A DNA stretch of 64,000 nt from Candidatus Omnitrophota bacterium. GTDB taxonomy: Bacteria; Omnitrophota; Omnitrophia; Omnitrophales; JACROU01. Position numbers and translations under genes: made by a program. The stretch lies in contig JAJDCD010000022.1 in assembly GCA_029261035.1 (NCBI GenBank), forward strand, positions 16,063 through 80,062. Reading direction: 5' to 3'. Below the pieces are notes generated by a model. That model was not told the DNA's origin. It was given only the letters and a program-made list of their open reading frames with translations, and searched no databases. Below are positions 17,776-62,100 of this stretch, one piece after another (the first letter of the stretch is position 1; every line of letters begins with the position of its first letter).

Positions 17776-17813
17776 ATCGAAGAAATATTTTTACATAACA
17801 AAGGAAAAACATA

Positions 17814-19310: not shown

Positions 19311-19313
19311 GTC

Positions 19314-21154: not shown

Positions 21155-21157
21155 TCT

Positions 21158-22264: not shown

Positions 22265-22266
22265 TA

Positions 22267-22905: not shown

Positions 22906-22917
22906 GGAGTTATCGTC

Positions 22918-24405: not shown

Positions 24406-24432
24406 CAACGAGTAAAGTTTAAGGAGTGGAAG

Positions 24433-26028
24433 ATGTCAAAAATTAATATTCCCGATTGGGATGTCGAAAATAATGAGTTTTGGAATAATAAGGGTAAAAA
24501 ACTTGCTTCTAAGAACCTTTGGCTTTCTATTCCTGCATTGCTACTGGCTTTTTCTGTCTGGTTGATGTGGGGGATGGTTATTGTTCAGATGAAAAAGCTG
24601 GGATTTAACTTAGGGCTTCCTGCGGAAACTCCGGAGCATTTAAGGCGAATTAACGAACTTTTATGGACGCTTCCTGCGATTGCAGGTTTGTCTGGAGCAA
24701 CATTGAGGATTCCCAATTCTTTTTTAATTGCTGTTGGGGGTGGACGTAATGTTATTTTCTTAACGACAGCACTTCTTCTAATTCCAACAGTGGCTGCAGG
24801 GGTAGCGTTACAGGATGTGAATACGCCTTTTTTCATTTTTGCTTTATTAGCGGCCTTATCCGGGTTTGGGGGAGGTAACTTTGCTTCTTCCATGTCTAAC
24901 ATTAGTTTTTTCTTTCCTAAAAGAGTCCAGGGAACTTCATTGGGTTTGAATGCAGGTCTTGGTAATTTAGGTGTGAGTGTTATGCAGTTTGTGATTCCTA
25001 TTGTTATTGCAGGAGGAGTCTTTGGAGCTGTGGCAGGTGGAGGTTTACCCTTAGTGGAGGTGGATGGCTCTAAAGCTGTGGGAACTTTGGTGTATATTCA
25101 GAACGCGGCATGGGTTTGGGTGCCTCTCTTAATCATTTCTGTTATCGCTGCTTTCTTCGGTATGAACAATTTGAAGTTTGCAACCCCTGCATTAGGTAAT
25201 TATTTTTTAGAGTTTAGTAAAATTATATTATTGATTTTTTTCGGAGTAGTCGCTGCTGGTTTTGGAGGTTGGTTACTAATTGGTTTAAAATTGAATATGT
25301 GGCTTGTGTTGCCCATTACAATTTTGATAACCGTTCTCTTGATGAAATTCTTATCTCCTGGGGAGTTGAAGGAAAATTTAAATAGGCAGTTTTCAATCTT
25401 TAAAAGTAAGCATAACTGGATTATGACGATTATCTATACGATGACTTTTGGCTCTTTTATTGGATACTCTGCTTCTTTCCCAAAATTAATTCAGGATGTG
25501 TTTGGATACCTACCCGATGGAGGGGTGAACCCAAATGCGCCAAACCCTATGACATGGGCTTTTTTAGGCCCCATGTTAGGCGCTTTAATTAGACCCTTAG
25601 GGGGATGGCTTTCTGATAAAGTCAATAGTGGGTCTAAAGTGACGACATGGAGTACGATTGCTCAGGTAGGTGCGGCGCTTGGAGTTGCTTACTTTATAGT
25701 TCAGGCAAAAGGGGTTGAAACTCCTGAAACTTATTGGTGGCCATTTTTTGTACTATTTATGATTTTATTCATTGCTACGGGCGTTGGAAATGGATCTACG
25801 TTTAGAAGTATTCCATATATTTTTAGTAAAGAGCAAGCGGGCCCTGTACTAGGATGGACCTCAGCCATTGCTGCTTATGGGGCATTTATTATTCCCAAAG
25901 TTTTTGGACAACAAATTAAAGCGGGCCATGCGGAATATGCGCTTTATGGATTTACGGCTTATTATTTGATTTGCTTGCTCCTGAATTGGTATTACTATGA
26001 CCGAAAAAATTCGCTCATTAAATGTTAG
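24433..26028 (+). CDS. narK: MFS nitrate/nitrite transporter NarK2
   Basis: Second NNP-family MFS paralogue in tandem. Confidence 0.85.
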   Translation: MSKINIPDWDVENNEFWNNKGKKLASKNLWLSIPALLLAFSVWLMWGMVIVQMKKLGFNLGLPAETPEHLRRINELLWTLPAIAGLSGATLRIPNSFLIAVGGGRNVIFLTTALLLIPTVAAGVALQDVNTPFFIFALLAALSGFGGGNFASSMSNISFFFPKRVQGTSLGLNAGLGNLGVSVMQFVIPIVIAGGVFGAVAGGGLPLVEVDGSKAVGTLVYIQNAAWVWVPLLIISVIAAFFGMNNLKFATPALGNYFLEFSKIILLIFFGVVAAGFGGWLLIGLKLNMWLVLPITILITVLLMKFLSPGELKENLNRQFSIFKSKHNWIMTIIYTMTFGSFIGYSASFPKLIQDVFGYLPDGGVNPNAPNPMTWAFLGPMLGALIRPLGGWLSDKVNSGSKVTTWSTIAQVGAALGVAYFIVQAKGVETPETYWWPFFVLFMILFIATGVGNGSTFRSIPYIFSKEQAGPVLGWTSAIAAYGAFIIPKVFGQQIKAGHAEYALYGFTAYYLICLLLNWYYYDRKNSLIKC

Positions 26029-26037
26029 TTTTGTGAT
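26022..26037. promoter_or_regulatory. CRP-type box TGTGA-TTTGAA-TCACt upstream of radical-SAM gene
   Basis: 9/10 half-site match. ATAATT at 26059 gives a −41.5 centre. Confidence 0.5.
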
Positions 26038-26136
26038 TTGAATCACTGTTTTATTGTACGGCACATGATAATTTAAACTCGTGATCGATTAATTTTTTAT
26101 TAATAAACCAAAGTCTATTAGCGAGTTTAAATTATT

Positions 26137-31681: not shown

Positions 31682-32698
31682 ATGAACCATCAAGACTATC
31701 TTGTTGACTCATACGGTCGACGACTATCTTATCTTAGACTTTCATTAACCGAATTGTGTAATTTTCGTTGCATCTATTGCATGCCTGAAGAAGGTGTGCC
31801 TGTGGTGCCTCCCTCAAAATATCTAACCCGAGATGAAATCTTACGTTTTACTAAAATTATAGGCCGCTTAGGTGTTCACCGTATTCGATTAACCGGTGGA
31901 GAGCCTTTGTTGCGGGAAGATATTCTGGATATTGTCCGAGCTCTTAAAAGTATTGAGACCGTAAAAGAGCTTTCTTTAACAACCAACGCGAGCCGTTTGG
32001 GACCTCTCGTAAATTCTCTTAAAGAGGCGGGACTAGACCGGATTAATATTAGTTTGGATAGTCTAGACCCAGAGAGGTTTAAAGAAATCACCTTAAAGGA
32101 TGTTTATTATGAAGTGTTAGATGCTACTTTTTCTGCGCTTCGAGCAGGATTTCCAGTAAAACTCAACATGGTTGTTTTGAAAGGAATTAGCGATGAGGAG
32201 ATTCTAGAGTTTGCCAAGATGGCTTATGACTTTCCATTGGATGTTCGTTTCTTAGAGTTTATGCCTTTGTGTGGAACAGGTTGGAAACCAGAGTGGGTTC
32301 TTCCTATTGAACATGTTCGTCAAGTGATTCATCAGCATTTTGAGCTGACAGAGGAAAAGAATCGAAAGGACGATGTTGCTCAGAATTATATGATTCACGG
32401 AGGAAAGGGCAAGATTGGTTTAATTGCTTCTCTAACAGAATCTTTTTGTGACCAATGTTCTCGAATCCGTTTGAGTGCAGATGGAAGTCTTTACCCGTGC
32501 CTTTTTTCAGACAAAGAGGTGTCTGTTAAAGATTTGCTTCGCAGTCATGCATCCGATGAAGCAATTATTGAAGCGATTCGTTATGCGGCTTCGATTAAAC
32601 CTAAGGGCAATTGGTTTTATGAAAACAAATTTAATGAAAAAGAGTCTCCTATTGAACAATTACAGTCTCATCCAATGATTCGTTCTATAGGCGGATAA
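31682..32698 (+). CDS. moaA: GTP 3',8-cyclase MoaA
   Basis: CNFRCIYCMP radical-SAM motif plus a C-terminal second cluster. Confidence 0.93.
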   Translation: MNHQDYLVDSYGRRLSYLRLSLTELCNFRCIYCMPEEGVPVVPPSKYLTRDEILRFTKIIGRLGVHRIRLTGGEPLLREDILDIVRALKSIETVKELSLTTNASRLGPLVNSLKEAGLDRINISLDSLDPERFKEITLKDVYYEVLDATFSALRAGFPVKLNMVVLKGISDEEILEFAKMAYDFPLDVRFLEFMPLCGTGWKPEWVLPIEHVRQVIHQHFELTEEKNRKDDVAQNYMIHGGKGKIGLIASLTESFCDQCSRIRLSADGSLYPCLFSDKEVSVKDLLRSHASDEAIIEAIRYAASIKPKGNWFYENKFNEKESPIEQLQSHPMIRSIGG

Positions 32699-38220: not shown

Positions 38221-39010
38221 AGCTTTTTATTTACAGCCTAAATTCTCTCATTTGGGCCCGGGCCTAAATGGAAGTTTTTTAAAATAAAGAACGTTTTATG
38301 TCGGAAAGATGTTCTTGCTCTTCTTTGTGAATAGGTTGTTCATGAAACTCTTTTATGTCGGATAAGGCATATGACATGTTTTCATTAAACATTGAAAGTC
38401 CTCCTGTTGTATCTAAGTAGTTCCATTCAGGTAAAGTTTTAACGTAACTTCCGTAACTGGACCATCTATAATTTTCTGGAGATGTAACAATATTTGCTTT
38501 TACTGGATTGTTATGGATATATCGAAGTAAAACTTTTCCATAGAGGTTTTCATTTACTAATCTATATTTGTATCTTCCCTGAAATAATGGTCCTATACGC
38601 TTATATTTCGTATTAAAAAAACGTGAGTACGTTGATGTAATATGCCAGATAGCCTCACTTAAATTAGGAGATACTGTTTGGATGAACAGGTGAAAGTGAT
38701 TATCCATAAGGCAGAACGCAAATAGGTTTACGTTATACTTTTTTACACTTTCCGAGGTTGCTTTGAGAAACATTTTTCTATCATAGTCGTCAAAAAATAT
38801 TTCATGCTTATTTACACCTCTATTGTATATATGATAATAAGCCCCTGGGTATTTGATTCTAGCAAAATGAGTCATAACGTATATTATTATAAATAATATA
38901 TAAATTTCAAATAATAAAATAAAAAATTGATAAAATATTCAAACAAGAGACCGATAAGTTTTTATTTTACAGTCTAAATTCTTGCATTTGGGCCCGGGCC
39001 TGTTTGGAAG
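38221..39010 (-). mobile_element. IS200/IS605-like or RAYT-like element: Y1 (HuH) transposase bracketed by ~52-bp direct repeats containing GGGCCCGGGCC palindrome
   Basis: Direct repeats at 38225-38275 and 38959-39010 are about 85% identical. Confidence 0.6.
38279..38875 (-). CDS. tnpA: Y1 HuH transposase (IS200-family/RAYT-like)
   Basis: …NHFHLFIQT… HuH motif, with downstream Tyr candidates. Confidence 0.8.
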   Translation of the reverse strand: MTHFARIKYPGAYYHIYNRGVNKHEIFFDDYDRKMFLKATSESVKKYNVNLFAFCLMDNHFHLFIQTVSPNLSEAIWHITSTYSRFFNTKYKRIGPLFQGRYKYRLVNENLYGKVLLRYIHNNPVKANIVTSPENYRWSSYGSYVKTLPEWNYLDTTGGLSMFNENMSYALSDIKEFHEQPIHKEEQEHLSDIKRSLF

Positions 39011-41139: not shown

Positions 41140-41230
41140 GATCCTTCGCTTCGCTCAAGGGTGACAATTTGTCTGTTCTCTTTGTCGTTAGATTGCCGCA
41201 GTTATTTTTTTTCCTCGCAATGACACATGC
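41140..41230. repeat. family A repeat, inverted orientation (GATCCTTCGCTTCGCTCAAGGGTGACAA … AGATTGCCGCAG … CCTCGCAATGACAC)
   Basis: Between the nnrE and Rieske genes. Confidence 0.65.
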
Positions 41231-41232: not shown

Positions 41233-41544
41233 TCATAATTCCAAATATATTTTATCTTTCTCTATTTTCAGTTTATAAGTTTCGATGGGTGGGGCTGGCA
41301 TGTTGAGACATTCGCCTGACTCTAAATTGAAGAGCCATCCATGAAGAGGGCAGCGGACAGCAGGGCCATTTTCGGTTTCTCCACGATATAAAGGGCCTCC
41401 ACGGTGAGGACAAAAGTTATTAATGGCATAGGCTTTTTCTTTGTGCCAAATAAGAGCAATTTCCTTATCCTCTAATTCAATACAAAGACCTTTGTTTGTT
41501 TTTAGTTCACTTAAATCAGCAATATATTGCCGCTCTTGGGACAT
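41233..41544 (-). CDS. small Rieske [2Fe-2S] protein (NirD/ferredoxin-like)
   Basis: CPHRGGPL…CPLHGW. Confidence 0.8.
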   Translation of the reverse strand: MSQERQYIADLSELKTNKGLCIELEDKEIALIWHKEKAYAINNFCPHRGGPLYRGETENGPAVRCPLHGWLFNLESGECLNMPAPPIETYKLKIEKDKIYLEL

Positions 41545-41708: not shown

Positions 41709-44700
41709 TTGGAGACTCAATTGAATTCAGACTCAAAATTAATAAAAGTTTTAGCATTTTTCATCTCTTTTTATTTTACACTTTTTTCAACCTTTTCTTA
41801 TGCTAAGGCAATCCCTGTAGCTCAAGTGGGTTCTTATGGGGATAATCCTTTAAGCATTTCTATTCCTTCTGAATTAGGAATACTCCGTAATAGTACCCCT
41901 ATTTTTCAAAAGAAGGGTATTATTTTTCATATTCAAGACGCGCATGGGCAATTAGAAGCTCAAGAGAATATTGAGAAATTACTCCACTACTTAAATTCTG
42001 AGCACAATGTAAATCTAATTTTTATGGAAGGAGCTCTTCAGGGAAGTGTTTCAAAAGACTTACTTCGTTTTTACTCCGAGCCAAAAGCGAATGAAAATGT
42101 TGTGGAGCAATTACTTGAAAAAGGGTTGATTGGTGGTGCTGAAAAATTCTTAGTTAATTCGGATAAAGAAACAAAAGGTTTTGGGGTAGAAAATAGTTCT
42201 CTTTATAGAGAAAATTTAGAATTATTTAGAGATGTATATAAATATCGAAAGATCACAGATATTTTCTTAAGCCAGTTTAGAAGTCGAATTGATTTGCTCT
42301 CCACTCATTATTTCAATTCGGACTTAAGAAAGTTTGTTATGGAGTGGTTGAAATTTTCTCGGAAAGAAAATCTTCAATACCGTTTTATTCAATTTTTAAA
42401 TAAATCATCAAAAAAATATCTAAACCTTGATTTAAATAACCCTCGAACCCAACTCCGTTACCCCCAATTAACGCGCTTCTTCACACTAAAGAAACTTGAA
42501 GAAGAGTTGAAGGGTGAGGATGCTCAAAAAGATTTAAAGGTTGAGAAAGTAAAATTTAATAATTGGCTTACTAACAAAGATATTTCTTCTGAGACTCAAA
42601 ATTTATTTAAACTGTTATTAGATTTTCATTCCTTATCTTCTGTTTCGAATATTAAATTTGATATTCGAAAAACTCTCGAAATCTTTTATACTCAAGCTTC
42701 TAAGAAAGGCTTTCAATTTCAAGATTATCCTCAGTTAACACGTGTTATAGGCAGTCTAATGTTATCTCAAGAACTTCAAGCGACGCAGTTGTTTTTAGAA
42801 GTAGAAGGTGTGTCTGAAGCTATTCTGGGAAAGTTAACGCAATCTGAGATAGAGAAAGATTTAGTCGGTTTAATCAAAAAATACTTATCCTTAAAAAAAC
42901 TTTTTGCTTTGGAATTAACGCGTGAAGATTGGAGAAAGATAAATTTATATGGAATTCATTTAATTGCACCTGAAGAATTAGTCTCTTCTATTCATGGAAC
43001 GGTTGAGTCTAAACGTATTGAAGAGTTGAAAGTAGATTTTGAAATTAAAGAAGCTTTTGAGAAAGCGACGCAATTTTATGCAGTAGCTGAAAAGAGAGAG
43101 TCTGTGATTGTTGAGAGTGTTCTCATCAATACAAAAGAGAATCAAAATGCTGTTCTGGTTACCGGAGGTTTTCACTCTGGAGGTTTGAGAGACTTGGTGG
43201 AGAAGGGAAGAAAGACTTTTATTGAGATAACGCCTAAAGTCACTCATTTAAATTCGGATCATACCTATTTAAATCAGATGTTGCTCTCTGATGTGTCTAC
43301 AGTTCCGTCCCTTTCTTTGGGGAAGCTATCATTACCTCAAATTGACCGTAATTTTGGGAGTGAGTCAGGACGATATGTGTTATCACAGCTTATGCCTATT
43401 CTTTCTCGTACAGATGGGAGATCAGGAATAGCCTTTGATGTTCATGGTATTAAACCGACGCATCGGTTGGAGCAACCTCAATTACAGACTGTAAGTGTTG
43501 CAGCCTCTTTAGGGAATAACTATCTAGAAAATGCTTTCTTTAAGTCTGCTCGTTTTGTTTCTCGAATACTGCCAACAACTTGGAAAGAAGATATTAAGAG
43601 TGTAATTTTTAGAAGGTTAGCTAAAAACCTTAAGAAGGCTATAGTGGAGTTTGCGATTCAATATGAAGATTTACATCCAGGAGCTCAAATTGATAAACCA
43701 ACGAAAGAGATGCAAGAAGCTTTCTTGAAAATTGCGAGACCCTTAGTGGAGAAGTGGTCTTCTAAACTTAAAAATAAACTTCGTTATCGTTTTCTTTTAC
43801 CTCTTGTTTTGAATTACCCTGAAGGGGATGAGGAGTACCGTAGAAATTCTATTTTTATAGATAAGGATACGGGATTTGGAATTTTTACTCATGTTTGGAA
43901 AAAGGACGGAAAAACTTTAATTCATAATCATGATGGAACTATGGCGCTGTTGATGCCTTTTACCAATGAGATGAAAGAGGAAGTGTATCAATTGGTAGAA
44001 AAACCCAAGTCTCCGGAGTGGGATAAACAAATACATGACTTAGAGATGATTGAAGAAAGAAAATTAGGATTGGGTACCGTTGCAAGTTTTACAAGAGGTC
44101 AACGGTCGATTCATCGAGTGAAGAACTCTTCTCCTTCGAGAGAAGGGCTTGTGATGGAGATTTACGTTTGGATGGAAAGTAATCCTCCAAAACAAGTGAA
44201 TGTTCCTATTCCTGTTTGGGGAGAAGAAAAAGCACATTTTATTTTGAGAGAAGAAGCCGGTAAATTAGCAGTTCCGTTACACCAGACTTTAAAACCGCAC
44301 TCGGGACAGTTGATAAGACCGGAAATGGTAGGAGTTTTTGTTGATCATTTGAAGCTGCAAATGGAAGAGTATGCGCAGAAGGGGAAGGTGTACCCCATAT
44401 TTATATTTGATGGAAAACAAATTTATGTTTTTGAAGATGTAGAGAAAGCTTTTGAGTGGTATTACGAATTAGATCCCGCAAACAGACCTGATGTTTATAT
44501 TAAGCTTACAGAAGAACAAGAGTATGCTTTTCTGGATGCCTCAAATGTGAATTTCCATCAAGAATCATTAGGCTCGAGTTTGGGGTTATCTGTTACAGAA
44601 GAAGTGCAAGAGAAGGCGGAGCTCTTTCGTACTTTGAAAGGTGTTGGAGATGTTGAATTCATTGATGCTTTTATACAGAATGTTTACTATTCTTTACTGG

Positions 44701-47700
44701 ACTCACCTCCAAGTGAAATAGTTGTAGACCCCGAAAATTATCAAGAGGGCCCTTCTTTGTTTGTTGACTATCGTGAGAAATGGTTAAAACACTTTGAAGG
44801 TTATTTTGATATAGCGACTCTTCTACAAGACGCTACTCCTGAATTTATCGACTACATGAAAGCTATTTTATTAAAGATGTTTTTTGAAAGATTTCCCGAG
44901 GTGGATAATCTGCCTGTTAGAGCTATTGAAGAGTTGGTGTATGAGTTCATTCGTTTGATTACTGGAATGCCAGAAGTAATGTCTTTCTTTAAAATGCGCG
45001 CACTTAGAGTCGGGGTGCACGAATTGCCTTTGCTTCATTTGAATAGTTCTGCTACGAGTAACGCGAGAGAGATGGGACACTATCTGATGGGTTTTGCCGC
45101 TCAAGCAAACATAGCGACCTCAGATGATTTTCGAGCTGCTGGAATAGATATGTATGAAACAGAGCAAAGAATGAAAAGAAATACTACTTTTGATGAAGAT
45201 CAAAAACAGGATTTAATTGAAGAGCCCTTTGCGAAATATGCCATGAGAATTAGAGAGGTTCAACCTAAGTTTTCGATTGATGCTCGGAATCCTCTGTTAA
45301 ACCGTTTGTTAGAAAGAAATGAGGAGGATGAGATTAAATCAAAACAAATTCTCTACTTCTTAGATAATACCATGGAATCCATTTTTGATTTAGGTCTGAT
45401 CCGTTGGATGATACAAATGGGTCATCAGGTTACTTTAGTAGCAAAAGAAAAAGAAGCTGATAATGATATGACTGTTGATGATGTTAATTTGCTATTAAGT
45501 TTAGAGCAAGTAAAAGACTTTTTCAAAGACATTGATATTCAGGAAAAGATAAAAGTAATTTCAAGCGGTTCTGCAACTAGAGGAACAAACCTCAGAAGAG
45601 CAACTCCAGTCTTGGTAGAAGCATGGCAACAAGCAGAGATTATTATTTCAAAGGGAGAGGGGAATAGAGGAACTCTTCAAGGTGTTAATAAGGATGTGTA
45701 TCACTTCGTGATGGCAAAACAAGGACATGAAACTCCTGGGATCCATCAAGGAACCATAGCTGTTGAGCATGTTTTGGCAGCAAAGAAAACAGAAGCTTCA
45801 AGCTTAGGGGTTGAGAATGTTGATGACTCGATGCAGGAATTTATCCTCCGCTATTTAGAGCCTAAATTACCATCGCCTCAAATTGTTGCAAAGCCTAAAC
45901 AGTACCGAATGACATCAAATGTGTTTTCATCTACCCATCCAGAGATTAAGGAAAAAAGAATCGCAAATACTTTTCTCTATTTAGAGATGATGATGCAAGG
46001 GCTGTCGGCAGAAACACAAGAGAAGAACAGATTGCTACTAAAACGTTTCATGGATAGACCGGAATTGGAAGGGGTTAATTTAAGGCTCTTTTCTTTAATT
46101 GTTTATGATTTTATAAAAATTTTGACTGAAAGAAAAGAAGGTTTAAGTAATGCAAAAAAAGAAGCTTATTCTATTGTCCTAGACATTTTGCATATATCGA
46201 AACATGAGTTTGAAGGTTTGGAAAGCGCACGCGAACAAGGGGCTTTAGCTATTGATTTTGCTACGCGCGGAAATCAAACAACTTACCGTACTTTTTTAGA
46301 AATATCTCAAGGATCTATTCCAACGATAGGTTATCGTGCTCACATGATGGCGCTTACGAATGAACCTTTGGCTTGGTCTGTGGATGATCGTTCTGAATTG
46401 TTAGACCTCTTGTTAGAATCAGAAAAAGGAAAGGTGAAGTCGAAGCATGTACTTTATCTTCTGGATAATGTCATAGAAGATGTTTTTGATTTAATATTAG
46501 TTCAGTGGCTCCTTGAACAAGGCCACACAGTTACTCTTGTTGTTAAAGAATTAGAAGCTGGAAATGATACGACCTTTGAGGATATAAACTATTTAATTCA
46601 ACAAGAAAAGGTTTTGGAGTATTTAAAACAGAGTGGAAACGTTTTTAATATTAATATCGTTTCTAGTAAGTCTGCAACGCATGCAACAGATTTGCGTTTT
46701 GTGACAGAAGAAGATAATCTGGGGCTATATCATTCTTGGCTTGCTGCAGATGTGATTATAGCTAAGGGAGAAGGTAATCGTGGAGCTTTGCAGGGAATCC
46801 ATAAAGATTTTTTTAGTTTAGTAAATTCAAAAGCAGGTTACGAAACTCCTGGAATCAAAAAAGGGACACGTGCTGTTGAAAGAAATTTAGGATACCAATC
46901 TAGAACAGCTCTCCGTTCTACTGTATTTCAACACATAAACGGAATTGTTTTAGCTCCCGTGATGAACTCTTTAGCGAAGAGGGGTGTTTTTAATTTGTTC
47001 AGACCTTCAGAAGGTGGATATGAAGAGGTTTCGGAAATGGGTGAAACTCGAGCTGAAACCATGGATGAAGATGAAGCGTTAGACGATGCAGGTCTTTCTA
47101 GAGTTTTAACTTTAAAACAAATCGCGGAAAGTCGATTTGCAAATCGTGCTATTGTTGAGGGTAACCCTGAGGATAATATGGGTAATCTTTATGGAGCTCT
47201 TCGGATGTTGGCTCTTCAAGGTTGGCTCACGATGGAAGGGGTCGATGAGGAGACAAAGTTTGCGTTAACAGAGCAAGGTTGGAAAGCTGTTGGCTTAGCT
47301 GAAAAAGGGACGTATATACCTTCAGTAGAAGCTGTGTCTAACTTAAATCAATTATATCGTTTAATCCGAGGTCCTCCCGCCGGCTTAGGAATGTTGTTTA
47401 GACAAAAATCTGAAAATGATGAGCAATTAAAAAGCTATAAAAAATTAATCCAATTGAGTAAAAAGAATTGGGGTATAAGAGGTGCGAAGTACTCTATTGA
47501 AGAACGTGTTTACCAGCAAGTGGTTAAGCAGATGGACGGGATGTTGTTGGGGCCAACCTTTGTTGCTTTGGCTATGCCTTTATATGAAGAACGAGGCGAA
47601 AAAATAGAAAAAACGGGGCCCTCCTTTTTTGAGCACTTTGATCCAGAAACACACACGCTTGATTTAACAACGTTAAAGGGATCCTTTCACCCTGAGTTTT

Positions 47701-50700
47701 TAAATGAAGCATTAGGACTTTTGGAAAATAAAGGTTTTATCGTTTTTGAAGGCACCGATAAAAAAGTTGTTCGTTTGACTGCTACGGGTCGAGTGATGGG
47801 AACGCGTCCTAGAAAAGGGAAGTCGGAGCTAGCTACAGCTTATGGTGTTACTAATTCTTATCTCGTCGGTTATCAATATGTGGATGAATGGTTGTTTGGT
47901 AATGGAGCTATTCTGGATTCAATTGAAGGGGATCGATTAGATCGTGTGATGGATGTTTGGGGTTCTGGAGGAAGTCATAAGGCTTACTTGGGGGGTGTAT
48001 TGTCTTATATGGAAGAAGTGTTTAATAAACCCCTAGAAGATCAGCCTGAAGGCTATGCGGATATGGGCAGTGGTAGTGGAGAGATGGCTGAAGAAATTAC
48101 AGATTTTATTCTTAATAAAACAGCGCGCGGTAACGTTCTGGAAGAGAAGGCTTTAACTGTGGTTACCTCGGACTATGATCGAGCATCTCAAAGACGTTCT
48201 CGAGCTACGATGGAAACAGCTTTTGGAAATAGAAAGGACATTCATTTAGAAACACTTTATGGTGATATTACAAAACCGGGTGAATATGATGCTGCAATTC
48301 GAAATTCATCCGATCTCAATGGAGCAACTGCTCGTAATTTGGTGCATTCTCAATTTTTTATACCTCACGAACGTTTTCTTCAATTAAAGTATGATGAAAA
48401 AAATAATGCGTTAGATATTATTCGTGAGAGTTTAAGTGCCGTTGATCGAGTTCAGCTAAAAAAAGCCTTAGAGCTTTTAGGAGAAACAAGAGAATTGCCA
48501 ACAGGTGAGAACGAGTTATTTGAGTTTGTTATTCGTCAATTCACAACCTCTTATTCGGATCGAGGTCGCTTGATTCCAGCTGTAGTTCAGGCTGCGGATT
48601 TAATGCAGTTTATGAGAAAGTGGGCGCCTTATACCCAACATGGATTAATTGTTTTAGATTTACATACACCTAGAGTTAACAGTCTGCTATTTCAGGATAT
48701 CCCAAAGGATTTAAATCAACCCATGACCGTGGAATTAACTCCAGCGGTTGCTTATTGGGGAACCCATTGGATTCCGAGAAAGAACGCGCCATCCCAATTG
48801 ATTATGCCTTATGAAGAATATAACCTTGTGATGGTTTTAGCCGGGATGACGCCAATTAGTCCAAAGCAATACCCTCCTAAAAAGACATTGCCAACCAACG
48901 TAAGTTTGACGCTTTACCGTGAGTCTAGTGCCGCAAACTCATTGGGTAAGGAGAATGATTTTCCTTTAACTCAGAAAGAGGCTCTTCAGATGATTTCGAA
49001 GAGAACTTTTAAAACGAAAGACTTAGATCGTATTCAAGGTGTTCCAGTTTCTAAAAGTAATATTTCATACAAACACCCCTATGTAACAGAAACGCAGATG
49101 AAATTATTAGCGAAAGTTTCTGAACAGAAGTATACGGATGAAGAACTTGATGTTGTTATTCAAGGAGGTTTTTTTAAGCCATTAACTCCAAAAGAAAGAG
49201 AAGAAGCTAATAAATTAGAAGATGCTCGAGGCTTTTATCTTTTTGATGAGCGTGATGTTTTGTTTCGTAGAGTAGATGTGGAACGATTATTAAATGGAAT
49301 GATTAGAGAAAAATATGCGCGTCGTCTTATGCGCACAGATCGTATTCGGATTGTTAGGTTATTAAATATTAAAGGAAACAAAGAGCATTGGGAAGTTCAG
49401 ACTTATGGAAAGATTCAATTAATCCCTGTTGCAGTAGTCAGAGAATGGTTAGAAGAAAAAGAACGTTTAGTTCATAGAGCAGTGGCTAAAAAAGTTTTAG
49501 AAGGGTTGGGTATTCGAATTGGTTCTTTTTACAGTTTTCTTAAGAAGCCTAAGAGTCATCTGAAAGGAGTTCAATTACCTGAACATAATAAAGAAAGAGG
49601 TGATTTGCTAAGTGTTAATTTGTATGGTTCTCCTGAATATCTAGATATACGAACTCTATGGTGGATTGTTGAACATCACACTAAAAAACAAGTGGTGAGT
49701 CAGCCTGGAAGTTCGGGGAGTGGAAGAGATGTGTCCAATGCTTCAAGTTTAGGCAATCCAGATAAAAGCGAAAAGTCAGAACGAATACAAAAGGCCATAA
49801 AAAAGACAGGGTATTCGGTGAAAAAATTTACTTCAAAAATGAGAGGGGAAATGTCGGCCTCTACCTTAGCTAGTTGGGCTAGTGGATATTACGAACCGAC
49901 CCTAGAGCAGGTTCAGTGGGTGGAATTAGAATCGGAGCGTTTAATGAAAAAGGTGAGAAAGCAAATTGTTAAACGTGTTCTTTATTTAAAAAATCTTTTA
50001 GATTTATCTCCCAATAAATTTCTTCAATTATTAAAAACAGAATTAAATTGGAAACGTTTTCCAACAGTACTTCAAATAACAGAAGGTGACTTTGACTTAA
50101 CCCCTTCTCAGCTAGAAGAAATTGAGTTGGTAGCAAAAAAAACTATTGCCGAGGAGTTTCGTTATTTGAGAAGAGAGATCTTGAACGAGGGGCAAATTAC
50201 TTTTTCAGATTATCTGGAAACTCATCAAGTGACATTGTCTCGTTACGAGAGAGGTGTTTTGCCGATTACAGTGGATTTAGCTAAAGCTTTAAGAAAAGCG
50301 CGAAGGATTGTTTATGAAAAAGCTCCTGAGAAACTAAAACGAACTCGACTTCAGTTAGATGTATCTCAAGTAAAAATGGGGGAATTGTTAGGTTTTAAGG
50401 TCCAACATGTAAGAAAAAAGACAGAAAACTTAGAGTCAGGTCATACGTTGATGCCTCCTGGGTTATTGCAAAAGGCTCAAAAGCTTTTGGGTACTTTAAA
50501 GAAACAGACAGGTCTTAAACTTCGTTTTTATAGAGAGCGAGCAGGATTGACCCAAGAAGAGCTGGTTGAAGCGATTGACGTTGAAGGCGTTGATAAAGCG
50601 CGAAACATTAGTTTGTTTGAAAAGGGAACGTTGGTGACGCCTTATGAAGTGATGGTGCGAACTAAAGAAATAGCTCGAGAAACAGTTACAGATGAAAATC

Positions 50701-51683
50701 TAAAAAGAGGATTGGAATTAAAATTTTATCGACTTCAAACAGGAATGACTCAACCTGAGTTTGTTGAAGCGCTTAATTTGGATAGTATCAATGAAGGCCG
50801 TCAAGAACTTGGAAGAATGGAAAGAGGGCTGTATCACGTACCTCAAGAAGTTCTCGATGCTGCTCGATTTATAGCTCAGAGACGCTCTGATTTTTCATTG
50901 TTCGAAACTTCAGCTGCTAGTTTAGGTTTAGAGAAATCTGTTATTGAAGTTGCGCGTTTCCCTGGTCAACGATTGTTTCGTGTTTCGGAATTGAGTGGGG
51001 AGCGTATTGGAGAGTTCTTTGAACAATTGGGTTTAGCGGATTCTACTTCTGTTGATAAGGATGTTCAATTATTTAATAAGGATTTAACTATCTTACTTTC
51101 AAATTTAGGTTTTGCTGATAGGCGTCAGCAAGAGAGAAGGTCTCTGCCTTTGATTTTAAACCAAGAAGTTTTGAATATGTATCAGAAGGAATCTGAAAAA
51201 GTTGTTCATAAAATATTAGGGGCAGTAAAACGAGGGGATGAGCTTTTAATTTTAAAGACAGAAAGAAAGGCATCTCGTTTGATTGATCAGTTGAAAACTA
51301 AGGCTCATGGAAAAGTGAAAATTCAAGTTTTGCCCGAAGCGCTTTTCAACTCTCAAAGAGTTGGGGTCTTAACTGAAAAATATCAAACAAAGCCAATTCT
51401 CGTAGAGTCTCTGTCTTCTGGAAAAAGAGATCAAGTTTCTGTGGACGAAATTCGGTTGGACTTAGATGCATTTACCCAAAGAGGAATTGATCCCATTCAG
51501 GTATTAGCCTTAATTAGGAGAATGGCGGATGATCCGAATAAAAGGGCTCAGTTGTTCTTTGAGGCTGGATTTGACTTTAACCAGGACCGTCAATATTGGG
51601 TTGTGGGACAACGCTTTGTACAGATTATGACCCAAATCTACTCCGAATACCTCCAATCGCGTCAGATAGCCCAGGCGGCCTAA
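41709..51683 (+). CDS. giant multidomain protein (3324 aa): signal/anchor, 2× DUF89-like, O-methyltransferase-like SAM domain, 5× XRE-type HTH repeats
   Basis: Uninterrupted ORF. The TTG start at 41709 or 41721 is uncertain (GGAGA RBS precedes 41721). Domain coordinates are given in the findings. Confidence 0.8.
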   Translation: METQLNSDSKLIKVLAFFISFYFTLFSTFSYAKAIPVAQVGSYGDNPLSISIPSELGILRNSTPIFQKKGIIFHIQDAHGQLEAQENIEKLLHYLNSEHNVNLIFMEGALQGSVSKDLLRFYSEPKANENVVEQLLEKGLIGGAEKFLVNSDKETKGFGVENSSLYRENLELFRDVYKYRKITDIFLSQFRSRIDLLSTHYFNSDLRKFVMEWLKFSRKENLQYRFIQFLNKSSKKYLNLDLNNPRTQLRYPQLTRFFTLKKLEEELKGEDAQKDLKVEKVKFNNWLTNKDISSETQNLFKLLLDFHSLSSVSNIKFDIRKTLEIFYTQASKKGFQFQDYPQLTRVIGSLMLSQELQATQLFLEVEGVSEAILGKLTQSEIEKDLVGLIKKYLSLKKLFALELTREDWRKINLYGIHLIAPEELVSSIHGTVESKRIEELKVDFEIKEAFEKATQFYAVAEKRESVIVESVLINTKENQNAVLVTGGFHSGGLRDLVEKGRKTFIEITPKVTHLNSDHTYLNQMLLSDVSTVPSLSLGKLSLPQIDRNFGSESGRYVLSQLMPILSRTDGRSGIAFDVHGIKPTHRLEQPQLQTVSVAASLGNNYLENAFFKSARFVSRILPTTWKEDIKSVIFRRLAKNLKKAIVEFAIQYEDLHPGAQIDKPTKEMQEAFLKIARPLVEKWSSKLKNKLRYRFLLPLVLNYPEGDEEYRRNSIFIDKDTGFGIFTHVWKKDGKTLIHNHDGTMALLMPFTNEMKEEVYQLVEKPKSPEWDKQIHDLEMIEERKLGLGTVASFTRGQRSIHRVKNSSPSREGLVMEIYVWMESNPPKQVNVPIPVWGEEKAHFILREEAGKLAVPLHQTLKPHSGQLIRPEMVGVFVDHLKLQMEEYAQKGKVYPIFIFDGKQIYVFEDVEKAFEWYYELDPANRPDVYIKLTEEQEYAFLDASNVNFHQESLGSSLGLSVTEEVQEKAELFRTLKGVGDVEFIDAFIQNVYYSLLDSPPSEIVVDPENYQEGPSLFVDYREKWLKHFEGYFDIATLLQDATPEFIDYMKAILLKMFFERFPEVDNLPVRAIEELVYEFIRLITGMPEVMSFFKMRALRVGVHELPLLHLNSSATSNAREMGHYLMGFAAQANIATSDDFRAAGIDMYETEQRMKRNTTFDEDQKQDLIEEPFAKYAMRIREVQPKFSIDARNPLLNRLLERNEEDEIKSKQILYFLDNTMESIFDLGLIRWMIQMGHQVTLVAKEKEADNDMTVDDVNLLLSLEQVKDFFKDIDIQEKIKVISSGSATRGTNLRRATPVLVEAWQQAEIIISKGEGNRGTLQGVNKDVYHFVMAKQGHETPGIHQGTIAVEHVLAAKKTEASSLGVENVDDSMQEFILRYLEPKLPSPQIVAKPKQYRMTSNVFSSTHPEIKEKRIANTFLYLEMMMQGLSAETQEKNRLLLKRFMDRPELEGVNLRLFSLIVYDFIKILTERKEGLSNAKKEAYSIVLDILHISKHEFEGLESAREQGALAIDFATRGNQTTYRTFLEISQGSIPTIGYRAHMMALTNEPLAWSVDDRSELLDLLLESEKGKVKSKHVLYLLDNVIEDVFDLILVQWLLEQGHTVTLVVKELEAGNDTTFEDINYLIQQEKVLEYLKQSGNVFNINIVSSKSATHATDLRFVTEEDNLGLYHSWLAADVIIAKGEGNRGALQGIHKDFFSLVNSKAGYETPGIKKGTRAVERNLGYQSRTALRSTVFQHINGIVLAPVMNSLAKRGVFNLFRPSEGGYEEVSEMGETRAETMDEDEALDDAGLSRVLTLKQIAESRFANRAIVEGNPEDNMGNLYGALRMLALQGWLTMEGVDEETKFALTEQGWKAVGLAEKGTYIPSVEAVSNLNQLYRLIRGPPAGLGMLFRQKSENDEQLKSYKKLIQLSKKNWGIRGAKYSIEERVYQQVVKQMDGMLLGPTFVALAMPLYEERGEKIEKTGPSFFEHFDPETHTLDLTTLKGSFHPEFLNEALGLLENKGFIVFEGTDKKVVRLTATGRVMGTRPRKGKSELATAYGVTNSYLVGYQYVDEWLFGNGAILDSIEGDRLDRVMDVWGSGGSHKAYLGGVLSYMEEVFNKPLEDQPEGYADMGSGSGEMAEEITDFILNKTARGNVLEEKALTVVTSDYDRASQRRSRATMETAFGNRKDIHLETLYGDITKPGEYDAAIRNSSDLNGATARNLVHSQFFIPHERFLQLKYDEKNNALDIIRESLSAVDRVQLKKALELLGETRELPTGENELFEFVIRQFTTSYSDRGRLIPAVVQAADLMQFMRKWAPYTQHGLIVLDLHTPRVNSLLFQDIPKDLNQPMTVELTPAVAYWGTHWIPRKNAPSQLIMPYEEYNLVMVLAGMTPISPKQYPPKKTLPTNVSLTLYRESSAANSLGKENDFPLTQKEALQMISKRTFKTKDLDRIQGVPVSKSNISYKHPYVTETQMKLLAKVSEQKYTDEELDVVIQGGFFKPLTPKEREEANKLEDARGFYLFDERDVLFRRVDVERLLNGMIREKYARRLMRTDRIRIVRLLNIKGNKEHWEVQTYGKIQLIPVAVVREWLEEKERLVHRAVAKKVLEGLGIRIGSFYSFLKKPKSHLKGVQLPEHNKERGDLLSVNLYGSPEYLDIRTLWWIVEHHTKKQVVSQPGSSGSGRDVSNASSLGNPDKSEKSERIQKAIKKTGYSVKKFTSKMRGEMSASTLASWASGYYEPTLEQVQWVELESERLMKKVRKQIVKRVLYLKNLLDLSPNKFLQLLKTELNWKRFPTVLQITEGDFDLTPSQLEEIELVAKKTIAEEFRYLRREILNEGQITFSDYLETHQVTLSRYERGVLPITVDLAKALRKARRIVYEKAPEKLKRTRLQLDVSQVKMGELLGFKVQHVRKKTENLESGHTLMPPGLLQKAQKLLGTLKKQTGLKLRFYRERAGLTQEELVEAIDVEGVDKARNISLFEKGTLVTPYEVMVRTKEIARETVTDENLKRGLELKFYRLQTGMTQPEFVEALNLDSINEGRQELGRMERGLYHVPQEVLDAARFIAQRRSDFSLFETSAASLGLEKSVIEVARFPGQRLFRVSELSGERIGEFFEQLGLADSTSVDKDVQLFNKDLTILLSNLGFADRRQQERRSLPLILNQEVLNMYQKESEKVVHKILGAVKRGDELLILKTERKASRLIDQLKTKAHGKVKIQVLPEALFNSQRVGVLTEKYQTKPILVESLSSGKRDQVSVDEIRLDLDAFTQRGIDPIQVLALIRRMADDPNKRAQLFFEAGFDFNQDRQYWVVGQRFVQIMTQIYSEYLQSRQIAQAA

Positions 51684-51711: not shown

Positions 51712-51761
51712 GGTGACTGTCACTAAAGTGACAGTCACCGGTATCAAAGCGGCATTTTTTT
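51712..51761 (+). terminator. 13-bp-arm perfect inverted repeat (GGTGACTGTCACT-AAA-GTGACAGTCACC) followed within 15 nt by T8
   Basis: Seen directly downstream of the giant gene stop. It is a probable terminator or a protein-binding palindrome. Confidence 0.55.
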
Positions 51762-58726: not shown

Positions 58727-59164
58727 ATGACACCTCAACTTAAAGAGGCTTCCATGGATAAAATTAAACAACCTAAGCTATTGACTCTTGAAGAAGCAAA
58801 TGCAATTCTTCCTGAAATAACTGTGCTTCTCAAACAAATTTCTGACAAAAAAGACCAGATAGAAAAGAAGCAAGTCGAAATCGATTCTCTAGAGCTTATC
58901 TTGGATGAAGATACCCCTAAACTACAGCAAGACTTAATCGACCGTTCTAGTGAATTTAATGAGCTAGTTTCTCAGGTTAAGAAAACGCTTCAGCGCATTG
59001 AAGACAAGGGTGGTTATCTAAAAGATCTAGATTATGGTCTTGTTGATTTTTTTGGAATGCATGAAAATAAAGTTGTTTACTATTGCTGGAAGCTAGGAGA
59101 ATCTAAAATTACTCACTGGCATGAAGTGGGTGAAGGGTTTGCTTCTAGGAAGCCTATTCATTAG
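58727..59164 (+). CDS. DUF2203-family protein
   Basis: Coiled coil, then …GYLKDLDYGLVDF…VYYCWKLGE…WHE…. Confidence 0.6.
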   Translation: MTPQLKEASMDKIKQPKLLTLEEANAILPEITVLLKQISDKKDQIEKKQVEIDSLELILDEDTPKLQQDLIDRSSEFNELVSQVKKTLQRIEDKGGYLKDLDYGLVDFFGMHENKVVYYCWKLGESKITHWHEVGEGFASRKPIH

Positions 59165-62100
59165 TTCTGATTGTTCATTTCTTCTATGGTTGCTCTATAA
59201 CCAATCCCGTGAGTTGTTAAGATTTTAAGCGTTTCATCTGATTCTGCTATTGTTCTCTTCTTTTTCTTTTGTCGATCAGAATAACCTGGAATTTCAATTT
59301 CCGCATCATTTTCTAATCTCTTTTGTTTAATTAAGAGTATGAGGTTTTCTATAAAATCTTTTCTTGATTGTCTATTTTGAAAATAAATTTGAGCTAATAG
59401 AGCTTGGTTTAAATTAAGTATGATTAGTGGCCCTTGAGGTGATGTTGATCCAATTGGACCTCCAATTGAGAATAACCAATTAATATTGTTTCCACTATTA
59501 ATGATGCCAGGGAGAGTGGCGTTAATTGGAGTGGCGTTGATGTTAACACTATCTTGAACATCTAAGAAGCCTAGCGTAGTGCCGCCTTGAGCGTCGATGT
59601 TCCACTGTGTTCCAGGTGTGCTGGATCTTAAGAAGAGTATATTGCCGGCAGCACCTTGTAATGTAAGATTACCAGCTACCGTTAATGTAGAGCTTGCTTG
59701 GAAGGTGAGTGTTGGGTCAACGACATTTACTTTGCTGAAATTATTCACTGTAAAAGAACCTGTAATTGATTGATCTAGACCGTCTAAGACAAAGGTTCCT
59801 CCATTGCCATTAAATGTAGCGGCAGGCGCAACGGTAATATTGTTTTTAACTCTAAAGGTAGTGCTAGGAGCGGTTAATGTTCCACCCGTTAGATTTAAGT
59901 TACCATTTACATCTATAATTCCTGTGTTACCATTCACATTTCCATTGGAGATATTTAAGTTTCCTTCGATTTGCTGGGTGTTTGTTCCTGTGTTAAAGGT
60001 TCCGCCATTAACAGTGACATTGCCTTGGGTTGTGGTTTGTCTTCCGTTGGAGTTTAAGGTACCGCTGGTGATTTGGACGTCATTAGCGACGGTAATATCG
60101 TTTGTTAAAACAAAAGTGGATTTAGCAATATTTTGATCATTGATGGTAAGGTTGAAGAAATTATTGATCCCGTTAATATTTAAAATACCTCCAACTCCAT
60201 CTCCGATATAGCCTACTGTTCCAATCGTATTGTTAAAGGTTCCAATGGTTGGAGTTTCATTTCCTGCAAGTCTGAGAAGTCCGTTGTTATCGACGGTACC
60301 GGCTGTAAAATTATTTTGATTTGCATTTAAAATATCATCGACTCCGATGGTAAGAGTATCTACGGTAACGGAATCTCCTAAAAGAATTGTTTTTGCCGTA
60401 CCATCAACGGTTACATCACCTAAGTCTTGGTTGTTGGCGGATAGAGTAGAGGTGCCATTGCCATCAAAAACCCATCCGCCATTTCCTTTCGTTACTGTTC
60501 CATTGACGGTAATGGTAACGTCACCAGATGCGTTCACCGTAGGGTCATTGGTGAGATCAAAATTTCCGTCTGTAATTGTGACGTTACCATTAATATCAAG
60601 ATTATTGGTTAAAACGACATTGTCTGTAACAGGAGTTGATTTATTAATTGTTAAACCAGCGATTGTTTTTCCTGCAAAGTCAACATTTTGATTGTTGTTT
60701 CCGTTGAGTGTGAATGAAGCAGTAGAAGAAACATTTGAGCTTGTTCCCATCGTAACATTACCTCCAACAGATATGGTGTTGGTAGTAGTGATGCCAGCAT
60801 TAGTGCTATCAGCTACTGTGAGATTTCCTCCCACGGTGATAGGGTTGGCACTTGTGTCGAGTTGGCCTAGGTTTAGAACGGCGTTTCCAACCATGTTAAG
60901 AGCTGAGGAGAAGACATTTTTACTGAGTGCATTTGTTAAATTTAGATTTAAATTATTAATTGTTTCACCAGACCAATCGACTGTTTGGCTACTGCTACCG
61001 TTAAGGTTGATCGTTCCGTTGTTATGAGTTAATGTTGTTATTCCAGATAAATCAATATTGCCACTAACATTACTTGTTCCAGAGGTTGCTGTGTAATTTC
61101 CACCACTAACAGTTAAACCACCTAAGGTGATATCTGCGGTACCTCCAACAAAGTTTCCTCCTGTTTGTGTATAGTTAGCAGCTGTAATGGTATTTGCCCC
61201 ATTCTGATTAAGGAAACCTTGGGTGAGTGTTATGTTTTGTTGTACATCCAAATTAGAAAGTAAAATAAGAGAGCCCGCAATTTTGCTAATAGTTAGATTA
61301 GGAATTGTAGAGTTTGCTGAAGTAGCTGTGAAAGTTTGATTTCCACCACCTGAAAAAGTAAGAGAAGCATTAAAAGAGGTTTCGTTGTCTAAAAGAGCAA
61401 AAGAGCTTGTGTTTCCAGACAGATTAAAGGTTAAATTAATGTCATTTACTGTTACAGCACCGTTTCCTGCCGTAACAGGGAAGCTTAAGTCTCCGCCAAC
61501 AGTAACTGTTGGTGTTCCATTACGAGTAATGGCTAGCGTGGTTCCTGCAGCAGAATTTTGAATGGTGATATTTCCTGCTGTTGAGAAGTTATTACCATCA
61601 ATAAAGGTGCTTCCTGTGCCTGTGCCGGCCGTTCGTTCAAGAGTTAATGTATTTAGGACGGCATTATTAAATCTAAGTGTCATTGGAGCAGCAGTATTGT
61701 TTCTGTGGATTAAACTTCCATTATTGTGAGTAAAAGTCACTGTGCCTGTAAAATCGACATTACCTAATACAGTTAAGTTACCAGAAGTAGACGTGAAAGC
61801 TCCTGCATCTAGATCTAAACTGCCAACTGTAATATCTCCAGAGCCTCCTATCCAGTTACCTGTTGTTTGAGTAAAGGCTTGTGTCACAGTAACGGTGTTT
61901 CCACCATTTTGATCAACGGTTCCCTGTGTTAATGTGAGTCCTAAACTAATGTTTAAGTCGGAGAGTAAGGTTAATATTCCTGAAGTTTTGTTGACTGTAA
62001 AGGAACCAAGGGTCGAGTTCTCAGGAGCGTCATTAAAACTTTGAACCCCTGTTCCTGTAAATTGAACGCTGGCATTAAATGTGGCTTCAGTATCTAAGAT

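Follow-up and report, generated by a model that had tools for sequence, protein, structure and literature searches.

A Modular 3324-Residue Protein of Candidatus Omnitrophota: A Candidate Processed Polyprotein from a Large Family of Giant Proteins

Introduction

Giant "multi-enzyme" open reading frames (ORFs) of Omnitrophota have already been described (West-Roberts et al. 2023, 10.1101/2023.11.21.568195; 10.64898/2026.06.07.730766; Seymour et al. 2023, PMC10066038). In the passages of these sources considered here, post-translational cleavage of the giants was proposed from their C39 and S8 domains, function is called poorly understood, the choice between one chain and a cut one is left open, and one of the papers gives the cleavage points as unknown. 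Here, we analyze a giant gene, encoding 3324 amino acids (aa), in a stretch of 64,000 nucleotides from a Candidatus Omnitrophota bacterium (assembly GCA_029261035.1, contig JAJDCD010000022.1, positions 16,063 to 80,062 of the forward strand; the whole stretch is called the window below). Its product joins a family-defining N-terminal domain to a string of cargo modules separated by a short peptide motif and to a C-terminal domain with an [AS]-Ala end, and it may be a polyprotein that is cut into separate products.

The protein resembles the published Omnitrophota giants, as far as those sources were consulted, in its phylum (judged from the distribution of homologues), in an N-terminal signal peptide or membrane helix, in fast divergence, and in the placing of many unrelated domains (methyltransferase, HAD, GNAT and glycogen enzymes) on one chain. 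It differs from them in size, the published sets comprising proteins of at least 10-30 thousand residues or larger and this protein 3.3 thousand, and in its proteases: Pfam detected neither of the published candidates, C39 and S8. The passages searched in those papers do not mention a TIKI-like N-terminal domain, either of the two motifs presented below, or an [AS]A C-terminus, and a literature search for the motif strings returned nothing relevant. The N-terminal domain family, the two motifs and the [AS]A tail thus appear undescribed in the literature searched, as far as the parts of the sources covered go.

In terms of mechanism, MARTX toxins are the closest analogue. In both kinds of protein, conserved terminal regions enclose a changing set of independent effector modules. 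Cuts at short sites between the modules free those of MARTX toxins, a step that is only predicted for the present protein, and the MARTX protease cuts after Leu. RRSP, one of the MARTX effectors, adopts the TIKI fold, and so probably does the N-terminal domain here. Unlike MARTX toxins, the present protein has no RTX repeat and no C80 cysteine-protease domain detectable by Pfam, carries an N-terminal Sec-like signal in place of a C-terminal type I secretion signal, and bears metabolic and regulatory rather than cytotoxic cargo; no type I secretion system genes were found in the window. Because RTX repeats, C80 and type I secretion are missing, we propose that the protein may work like a MARTX toxin, not that it is one.

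A Family of Modular Giant Proteins

The gene is a single ORF, as a sequence-only reading of the window had described it, and the identical protein is already present in NCBI, on an 87-kb contig. A second in-frame TTG lies at 41721, four codons past the first. The gene and its modules are as follows.

41709..51683, + strand: giant ORF, 3324 aa and stop codon, TTG start, uninterrupted
41736..41804, + strand: hydrophobic helix at the N-terminus (aa 10-32), putative Sec-type signal peptide or anchor with SYAKA as its last residues
41856..43460, + strand: family-defining N-terminal domain (aa ~50-584), alpha/beta core with a helical insertion of ~310 aa
43515..44561, + strand: module 2 (aa 603-951), cupin resembling cysteine dioxygenase (CDO)/3-mercaptopropionate dioxygenase, with a small C-terminal part
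44586..45794, + strand: module 3 (aa 960-1362), DUF89/ARMT1-like copy 1, PF01937 E = 3.6e-24
45810..46889, + strand: module 4a (aa 1368-1727), DUF89/ARMT1-like copy 2, PF01937 E = 6.1e-20
46890..48932, + strand: module 4b (aa 1728-2408), AprA_N, winged helices and AprA/SxtA-type class I S-adenosylmethionine (SAM) methyltransferase
48948..49739, + strand: module 5 (aa 2414-2677, 264 aa), single detectable relative within the orthologue P0009
49755..50912, + strand: module 6 (aa 2683-3068), array of XRE/Cro-type helix-turn-helix (HTH) units, four by hidden Markov model (HMM) and about six by eye
50928..51680, + strand: module 7 (aa 3074-3324, 251 aa), conserved C-terminal domain with Rossmann-like HAD-like fold and terminal helix, ending ...QAA-COOH

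To define the family, a profile of aa 1-602 was built with the Omnitrophota homologue P0005 and run with HMMER against 1.84 billion representative proteins. It matched 7998 representative proteins at E<=1e-3 and 2132 at E<=1e-30, and the matched domain was N-terminal in every member. It was this exhaustive scan that revealed the family; word-indexed searches with sub-regions gave few matches. The top 150 members have a median of 2033 aa and reach 7818 aa at most, and complete members free of cargo measure about 1,000 aa. The source names of the relatives ("DUF89 family protein", "helicase-related protein", "GNAT family N-acetyltransferase", "hypothetical protein") mirror the cargo only. The N-terminal region was also scanned against GTDB genomes, which gave 358 confirmed loci. 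In the best 80 of these 358, to which our taxon statements refer, the named taxa were nearly all Candidatus Omnitrophota metagenome-assembled genomes, often with several paralogues per genome, the other loci being labelled 'uncultured bacterium' or bearing another phylum name. Judged by these profile matches, the giant gene belongs to a very large family of modular Omnitrophota giants that has so far gone without annotation. The plan of the family is an N-terminal Sec-type signal or anchor helix, a domain of ~550 aa, a variable string of cargo, and a C-terminal domain that ends in [AS]-Ala. What had been taken for a 270-aa unassigned C-terminus in the present protein is such a conserved family domain. 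The sequence-only reading had missed the features of most interest, namely the N-terminal domain that defines the family, the motif recurring between modules and the conserved Ala-Ala end.

The hydrophobic N-terminus that was read earlier as a signal or anchor is borne out at aa ~10-32, where AlphaFold (AF2) gives a helix; this is the sole hydrophobic, membrane-helix-like segment of the giant protein. By eye, the sequence KLIKVLAFFISFYFTLFSTFSYAKA fits the Sec signal pattern of a charged n-region, a hydrophobic h-region and a small-x-small c-region, and the segment is unusually conserved with the homologues P0005, P0006 and P0009. In the 37 of 150 family members in which a hydrophobic segment was detected, the flanks of the helix carry charges of +2.6 on the N-terminal and -0.7 on the C-terminal side, which predicts an N-in, C-out orientation.

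Pfam and NCBIfam gave no match to aa 1-600 even at E<=5, and a 23-sequence profile of the region found nothing in the PDB at E<=10. The AF2 model built from the same number of aligned sequences has a predicted local distance difference test (pLDDT) score of 82.6 and a predicted template modelling (pTM) score of 0.78. Its core strands lie at 57-62, 71-77, 103-110, 156-161, 481-486 and 503-509, and form the parallel beta-sheet core that is typical of the TIKI/TraB/EreA/ChaN superfamily. H79, E107, E161, R463 and H489 are conserved in 100% of 147 family members; H79, E107, E161 and H489 come after core strands. Two His and two Glu residues placed in this way recall the invariant catalytic set that was described for the superfamily, which includes the TIKI Wnt protease, RRSP, erythromycin esterases, Bcr135/136, ChaN and HopBA1 (PMC6254334). 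The present domain is unlike these proteins in that the helical insertion splits its core and in that it always stands N-terminally on long modular proteins. It also has no sequence match to Pfam TraB or to PDB chains: sequence profiles (Pfam TraB/PrgY/GumN and erythromycin esterase) did not place it in the superfamily, and Foldseek of the model against the PDB returned nothing significant. For this last reason we call a TIKI/TraB/EreA/ChaN-like hydrolase fold only probable. TIKI and PrgY, to which we liken the domain, are membrane-tethered.

Inter-Module Motif and C-Terminal Tail

Short, similar peptides separate the modules of the giant protein.

43500..43514, + strand: motif 1, AASLG (aa 598-602), in the segment aa 585-602 with pLDDT below 50
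44562..44585, + strand: motif 2, doubled ESLG-SSLG (aa 952-959), inter-module
45795..45809, + strand: motif 3, ASSLG (aa 1363-1367), inter-module
48933..48947, + strand: motif 4, ANSLG (aa 2409-2413), a variant of the consensus
49740..49754, + strand: motif 5, ASSLG (aa 2678-2682), inter-module
50913..50927, + strand: motif 6, AASLG (aa 3069-3073), in the disordered N-terminus of the C-domain model

The pattern [AG][AS]SLG occurs 5 times in the protein against 0.02 expected, a number that 0 of 20,000 shuffles reached, and is absent from the other 15,863 residues encoded by the window. P0005, P0006 and P0009 carry it 4-5 times each and show similar enrichment. In the 14 members with this "ASLG flavour", position -2, which the search left unconstrained, is A or G in 97% of sites; the residues around the motif are unconserved, and the median spacing is 430 aa. 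Most other members have RSE[LVAMI]R in equivalent places with a median spacing of 290 aa, 'RSEL' being found 153 times in them where 13 were expected. In P0015, RSExR sites separate a starch-synthase module from a glycogen-phosphorylase module. No protein carries at least three of both [AG][AS]SLG and RSExR, and the flavour tracks the clustering of the N-terminal domains, nearest neighbours agreeing in 82 of 83 cases.

The codons behind both motifs vary synonymously at every position (TTA or CTA frequently encodes Leu, and CGN-TCN-GAR, not AGGAG, encodes RSE), indicating that the signal acts at the peptide level. A nucleotide-level motif, such as an internal Shine-Dalgarno sequence with a start codon, an RNA-processing site or a recombination site, was rejected on the same ground. 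The sites lie between Pfam domains and, in the models of the N- and C-terminal domains, in stretches with pLDDT below 50. They also bound the presence and absence of modules among P0001, P0005 and P0006: P0005 is without the cupin and P0006 without DUF89, while the gene in the window has DUF89 twice.

A second SLG stretch, VP-x-x-S-L-G-K, is found near the end of the N-terminal region (aa 530-540, about 43296-43328). It recurs in members of both flavours (e.g., P0006, P0009 and P0018) and could be an ancestral site or a pseudo-substrate.

The C-terminus of the family is also conserved. Among 150 members, Ala is the last residue in 112 and [AS]-Ala ends 104, with a hydrophobic residue at position -5 and Ala at position -9; members without the [AS]A end are mostly interrupted by contig ends. 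The pattern spans at least eight unrelated clusters of C-terminal domains, and the ASLG flavour goes together with the HAD-like C-terminal domain in 9 of 10 complete proteins, P0146 being the exception. The linker dipeptide [AG][AS] before SLG resembles the [AS]A tail, so a cut before the Ser of the motif would leave a similar C-terminus on every module.

Cargo Modules

The sequence-only reading had recognized DUF89-like, methyltransferase-like and HTH domains, and searches of Pfam, NCBIfam and the PDB support all three. PF01937 scores 146.9 bits on the whole protein (cut-off 25) in two separate stretches, and the two copies are paralogous with 33% identity over 377 aa (E = 7e-50), so the earlier call of two paralogues holds; its size of 230 aa does not, each copy having about 380-400 aa. 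Compared with the DUF89/ARMT1 phosphatases PH1575 (PDB 2g8l) and At2g17340 (1xfi), the copies score far past the Pfam cut-off and align in three motifs, the D-N, N-D and K-G-x-G-N of both matching PH1575; copy 2 carries LLDN, GNDTT and KGEGNRG. They differ from these enzymes in a divergent N-terminal helical half, in their duplication and embedding in a giant protein, and in the Gly of DNxGE, which is replaced by Met or Ile (DNTME and DNVIE for DNVGE). Gly alone is replaced: the Glu, formerly also read as altered, aligns to that of PH1575. The NCBIfam equivalog NF040824 gave 66.6 bits on these modules, far under its cut-off of 440, and they are therefore not orthologues of the characterized damage-control phosphatases. 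By their motifs, modules 3 and 4a are DUF89/ARMT1-like metal-phosphatase modules with predicted phosphatase activity.

Module 4b bears out the proposed class I SAM-methyltransferase region with motif I DMGSGSGE and, more weakly, its winged helix. PF23525 (AprA MT2-like) scores 114.8-123.2 bits and PF23526 (AprA_N) 35.6-44.2 bits, each against a cut-off of 27, and the winged-helix family PF23589 matches weakly (23.2 bits against 27). In the PDB, the sequence matches the SxtA methyltransferase 7ucl (E = 1e-19) and AprA MT1 6b39 (E = 3e-12); DMGSGSG aligns with DMGCGDG of SxtA, as do the stretches H...H-E/D-R and L-D/E-x-H with their SxtA counterparts. An "O-MTase-type dimerisation helix" had been suggested as well; this N-terminal part turned out to be of the AprA_N/WH_AprA type, and plant O-methyltransferase families were unmatched. 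The module thus shares AprA_N, the class I core, SAM motif I and probably the winged helix with AprA MT1 and SxtA, the metal-dependent C-methyltransferases of polyketide synthase (PKS) loading modules. Unlike them, it has only ~25-30% identity in the core and lacks their context: Pfam found no acyl carrier protein (ACP), ketosynthase (KS), acyltransferase (AT), condensation (C) or adenylation (A) domain in the giant ORF, and ACP, KS and GNAT are likewise missing from the giant ORF and its neighbouring genes, so it does not qualify as a PKS module. Stand-alone relatives of ~540 aa carry all three Pfam domains; the closest are from Marinimicrobia and Flavobacteriales, and their genomic context was uninformative.

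The cupin of module 2 matches CDO_I (PF05995) below the cut-off (E = 0.002, 18.1 bits against 23), and a profile of three orthologues matches CDO 6xb9 weakly (E = 7e-4). H137-x-H139...H200, in within-module numbering, is invariant in these three. Pfam gave no match to module 5, which BLAST aligns with P0009 residues 2211-2449 (E = 1.6e-7). In module 6, searches in tiles gave HTH_3 (PF01381) 46.9 bits against 23 and HTH_31 (PF13560) 42.4 bits against 27, and HTH_19 was also matched in the giant protein. Tandem Cro/C1-type (XRE) units are indeed present at aa ~2690-3060: an iterative HMM finds units at 2875-2926, 2933-2992 and 3000-3057, Pfam adds 2832-2863 to make four, and two more, N-terminal in the array, are visible by eye only. 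In the C-terminal domain, the combination of a Rossmannoid fold with a DxD nucleophile after strand 1, by which a HAD-like phosphatase is recognized, was not found.

Orthologues and Evolution of the Locus

The domain mix had been called unprecedented and without described counterpart; P0005, P0006 and P0009, from other genomes, are collinear with the giant ORF, and one collinear relative is named "DUF89 family protein" in NCBI. A metagenomic contig of 2.17 Mb (L003) is fully syntenic with the window. Proteins encoded on its flanks share 50-88% identity with their counterparts in the window, and its giant gene (10001-26062) encodes P0009, which has 5,353 aa and is 25-43% identical to the giant protein. 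Conserved flanks around a divergent giant indicate a stable locus in which the giant gene itself evolves rapidly, with a shifting set of modules.

An expanded HTH array accounts for much of the extra 2,000 aa of P0009, with 22 XRE-type units by iterative HMM compared with 3-4 here. P0009 also carries an Aca2/YdiL-like domain.

At two further Omnitrophota loci (L001 404-9934; L084 1-5909 and 14687-17574), a homologous giant gene lies inside a phosphonate/phosphonolipid-type cluster with a phosphoenolpyruvate (PEP) mutase-nucleotidyltransferase fusion, split thiamine pyrophosphate (TPP) decarboxylase genes, aminotransferases and CDP-alcohol phosphatidyltransferases. Neither the window nor its syntenic counterpart L003 carries these phosphonate genes.

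A Proposed Polyprotein and Its Alternatives

We give about even odds to the reading that the giant gene encodes a polyprotein, either inserted into the membrane or exported, from which cuts at the motifs release separate products; we infer the cleavage, the protease, the topology and the destination alike. The N-terminal helix would insert the protein into the cytoplasmic membrane or export it across this membrane, and cuts at the linker motifs would release the cupin, the DUF89 enzymes, the methyltransferase, the HTH array and the tail domain. The N-terminal TIKI-like domain is one candidate for the protease. Another would be a trans-acting protein that recognizes the Ala-Ala end, either a tail-specific S41/Ctp protease or a ClpX-type reader. 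The products might act in a cytoplasm, possibly that of a prey or host cell. The cargo needs cytoplasmic cofactors such as SAM, so a cytoplasm is the most plausible place of action. For Omnitrophota, a predatory or parasitic lifestyle was proposed in the part of the literature consulted (PMC10066038). SAM-dependent and DNA-binding cargo would be useless in the periplasm, and together with such a lifestyle this makes delivery to another cell attractive. A secreted, host-targeted multi-module protein, as the sequence-only reading had imagined, may thus form one branch of the best explanation. More tentatively, [AG][AS]SLG and RSE[LVAMI]R might both be the cleavage points of exported Omnitrophota polyproteins that are processed by themselves or through their tails and possibly delivered into prey or host cells. 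The family, about 8,000 protein clusters, would then combine a membrane-tethered TIKI-like protease at the N-terminus with interchangeable cargo cassettes and the Ala-Ala tail; we regard this extended proposal as possible but doubtful.

Such a protein would share with viral and bacterial polyproteins its protein-sized units and a short, lineage-specific peptide motif in disordered linkers. It would differ from them in being a chromosomal bacterial gene in a housekeeping neighbourhood, in processing that is predicted here, and in that no dedicated chymotrypsin-like or papain-like protease module was identified in it.

Several observations weigh against processing. The catalytic-looking residues are the same in both flavours, and a test for protease-substrate co-evolution found no alignment columns of the N-terminal domain specific to the ASLG flavour; identical residues in both argue against this domain as the specificity determinant. 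The agreement between flavour and N-terminal domain could simply reflect common descent. The DUF89-methyltransferase junction (aa 1724-1727) reads RNLG, a degenerate form, where P0005 has AASLG; the first 2,011 aa of P0009 are free of sites; and 35 of 96 long family members carry neither flavour. With such junctions, cleavage cannot be obligatory at every boundary. The predicted C-out topology sits uneasily with cargo that binds DNA or depends on SAM, unless the products enter another cell; the window showed no secretion or injection machinery linked to the gene; and cleavage itself is inferred from sequence.

These points are shared in part by the rival in which the protein stays uncleaved and works as one chain on the cell's own membrane, a tethered multi-enzyme and regulatory scaffold whose conserved motifs would act as flexible linkers or would dock a partner such as a chaperone, a modifying enzyme or a translocon. 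Retention of modules at junctions that have lost the motif and the lack of a protease specificity determinant in the N-terminal domain agree with a scaffold, as do cargo modules that belong in a cytoplasm, namely the SAM methyltransferase and HTH units here and the glycogen synthase and phosphorylase of P0015. In the part consulted, the 2026 preprint likewise sees many long proteins of Omnitrophota as anchored in the inner membrane with cytoplasmic content (10.64898/2026.06.07.730766). A precise, flavour-specific and mutually exclusive peptide motif in otherwise unconserved disordered linkers is, however, atypical of passive linkers; the flank charges of the helix predict N-in, C-out; and a scaffold leaves both the invariant 2His/2Glu set and the [AS]A tail unexplained. 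We rate a scaffold as conceivable, with the balance on the negative side. A megaenzyme for the biosynthesis or tailoring of a small molecule, e.g., a phosphonate or phosphonolipid, would have the cupin, the DUF89 enzymes and the C-methyltransferase act in sequence together with a Rieske protein, under regulation by the HTH array. The kinship of the methyltransferase with AprA MT1 and SxtA, the divergent 103-aa Rieske gene upstream in four loci, and the phosphonate-type clusters around the giant gene in L001 and L084 speak for it. We consider it unlikely, as the protein has no ACP, KS, AT, C or A domain, the window and L003 lack the phosphonate genes, orthologues can do without the cupin and DUF89 modules, and the family-wide N- and C-terminal hallmarks and the motif would go unexplained. 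It could hold alongside the polyprotein, as an account of the cargo.

Two further explanations arise from the earlier reading of the gene. What that reading implied was a novel secreted effector from a chlamydial symbiont of amoebae, with an unprecedented domain mix and bracketed by repeats like miniature inverted-repeat transposable elements (MITEs). A signal-like N-terminal segment does exist and the domain calls were correct, but none of the best 80 of 358 loci is chlamydial, a syntenic orthologue and collinear homologues exist, and the window, syntenic with L003, encodes NarGHI, NrdD and molybdenum-cofactor synthesis. The supposed MITE-like repeats at 41140-41230 could not be reproduced either: no direct or inverted repeat was found there, and no second copy in the window. 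This origin is highly improbable. Even less credence is due to an assembly chimera or a non-coding artefact, for which length and mixed content are the sole grounds for suspicion. The architecture is collinear in three independent assemblies (those of P0005, P0006 and P0009, the last with synteny on both flanks), every segment is conserved at the protein level, and neither GC content nor GC skew shifts over 41-52 kb, the whole giant ORF included.

Genomic Neighbourhood

The neighbours of the giant gene are housekeeping genes: Suf, NarGHI, NrdD/G, molybdenum-cofactor synthesis, MiaB and a YjeF_N protein upstream, and LipA, an aminotransferase, a racemase, QueC/E, RNase PH and Ham1 downstream. 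PADLOC defence-system models found 0 families in the giant ORF, and plasmid records held no near-identical match to the 4-kb stretch flanking the gene. Two elements adjoin it directly.

41233..41544, - strand: Rieske_2 (NirD-like) gene, 103 aa, divergent from the giant gene, placement kept in four loci
51712..51739, no strand: palindrome, 29 nucleotides past the stop codon, 13-nucleotide arms, 100% complementary

A Rieske_2 gene of ~103 aa is found upstream of the giant gene and on the opposite strand also at L003 9334-9651, L001 7760-8071 and L084 4814-5143, with a CDP-alcohol phosphatidyltransferase gene in between in L001 and L084; identity is 44-50% across the two loci compared (L001 and L003). 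Because this placement is constant in four of four loci despite differing neighbourhoods in two of the four, it suggests a link between the two genes, either functional or by regulation.

The strong palindrome reported earlier is real. It consists of two 11-bp palindromes GTGAC-N-GTCAC spaced by 4 nucleotides and occurs once in the window; among the fetched loci, its 12-nucleotide arm sequence GGTGACTGTCAC had one other match (L029). It may be a terminator-like hairpin or an operator, the latter being possible since no T-run follows it directly. A scan for promoters and terminators at both ends of the giant gene, the palindrome included, brought out nothing canonical.

Other features of the window were noted in passing. 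A molybdenum-cofactor riboswitch (RF01055, 31525-31648, + strand; 37.8 bits against a gathering score of 36) lies directly 5' of moaA (31682-32698) and of the moaC/mogA-tauE-moeA genes. The NarI gamma subunit (19841-21154, + strand), 3' of narG-like (14140-17775) and narH-like (17814-19310) genes, has a Rieske domain fused at its C-terminus. A gene for an IS200-type Y1 transposase (38279-38875, - strand) has a counterpart with 58% aa identity at the corresponding syntenic place of the related 2.17-Mb genome, which points to a long-resident, possibly domesticated gene and not to a recent insertion. A second giant ORF (59161-64000, - strand) continues past the last position of the window; at least 1,612 of its residues are visible, and its counterpart in L003 was called as 11,493 aa. 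It has no Pfam match, ends in ...NNQN, and is without the ASLG and RSExR motifs; by these features, it belongs to a separate family of giant genes.

Significance

Giant ORFs are a hallmark of Omnitrophota, and a gene of 3.3 thousand codons is a small and tractable one. The three sequence rules presented here, namely the shared TIKI-like N-terminal domain, the lineage-specific five-residue motif and the [AS]-Ala C-terminus, are directly testable, and the same rules could be used to split giant ORFs computationally into units for the prediction of structure and function. If processing is true, it would amount to a widespread polyprotein strategy in bacteria, and would explain the cassette-wise gain and loss of modules that is seen between 3,324 aa here and 5,353 aa in the syntenic orthologue. 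On the more tentative, extended proposal, the family would provide a counterpart, in bacteria and with other building blocks, to viral polyproteins and MARTX toxins, and would deliver whole sets of enzymes and DNA-binding arrays, possibly into prey or host cells.

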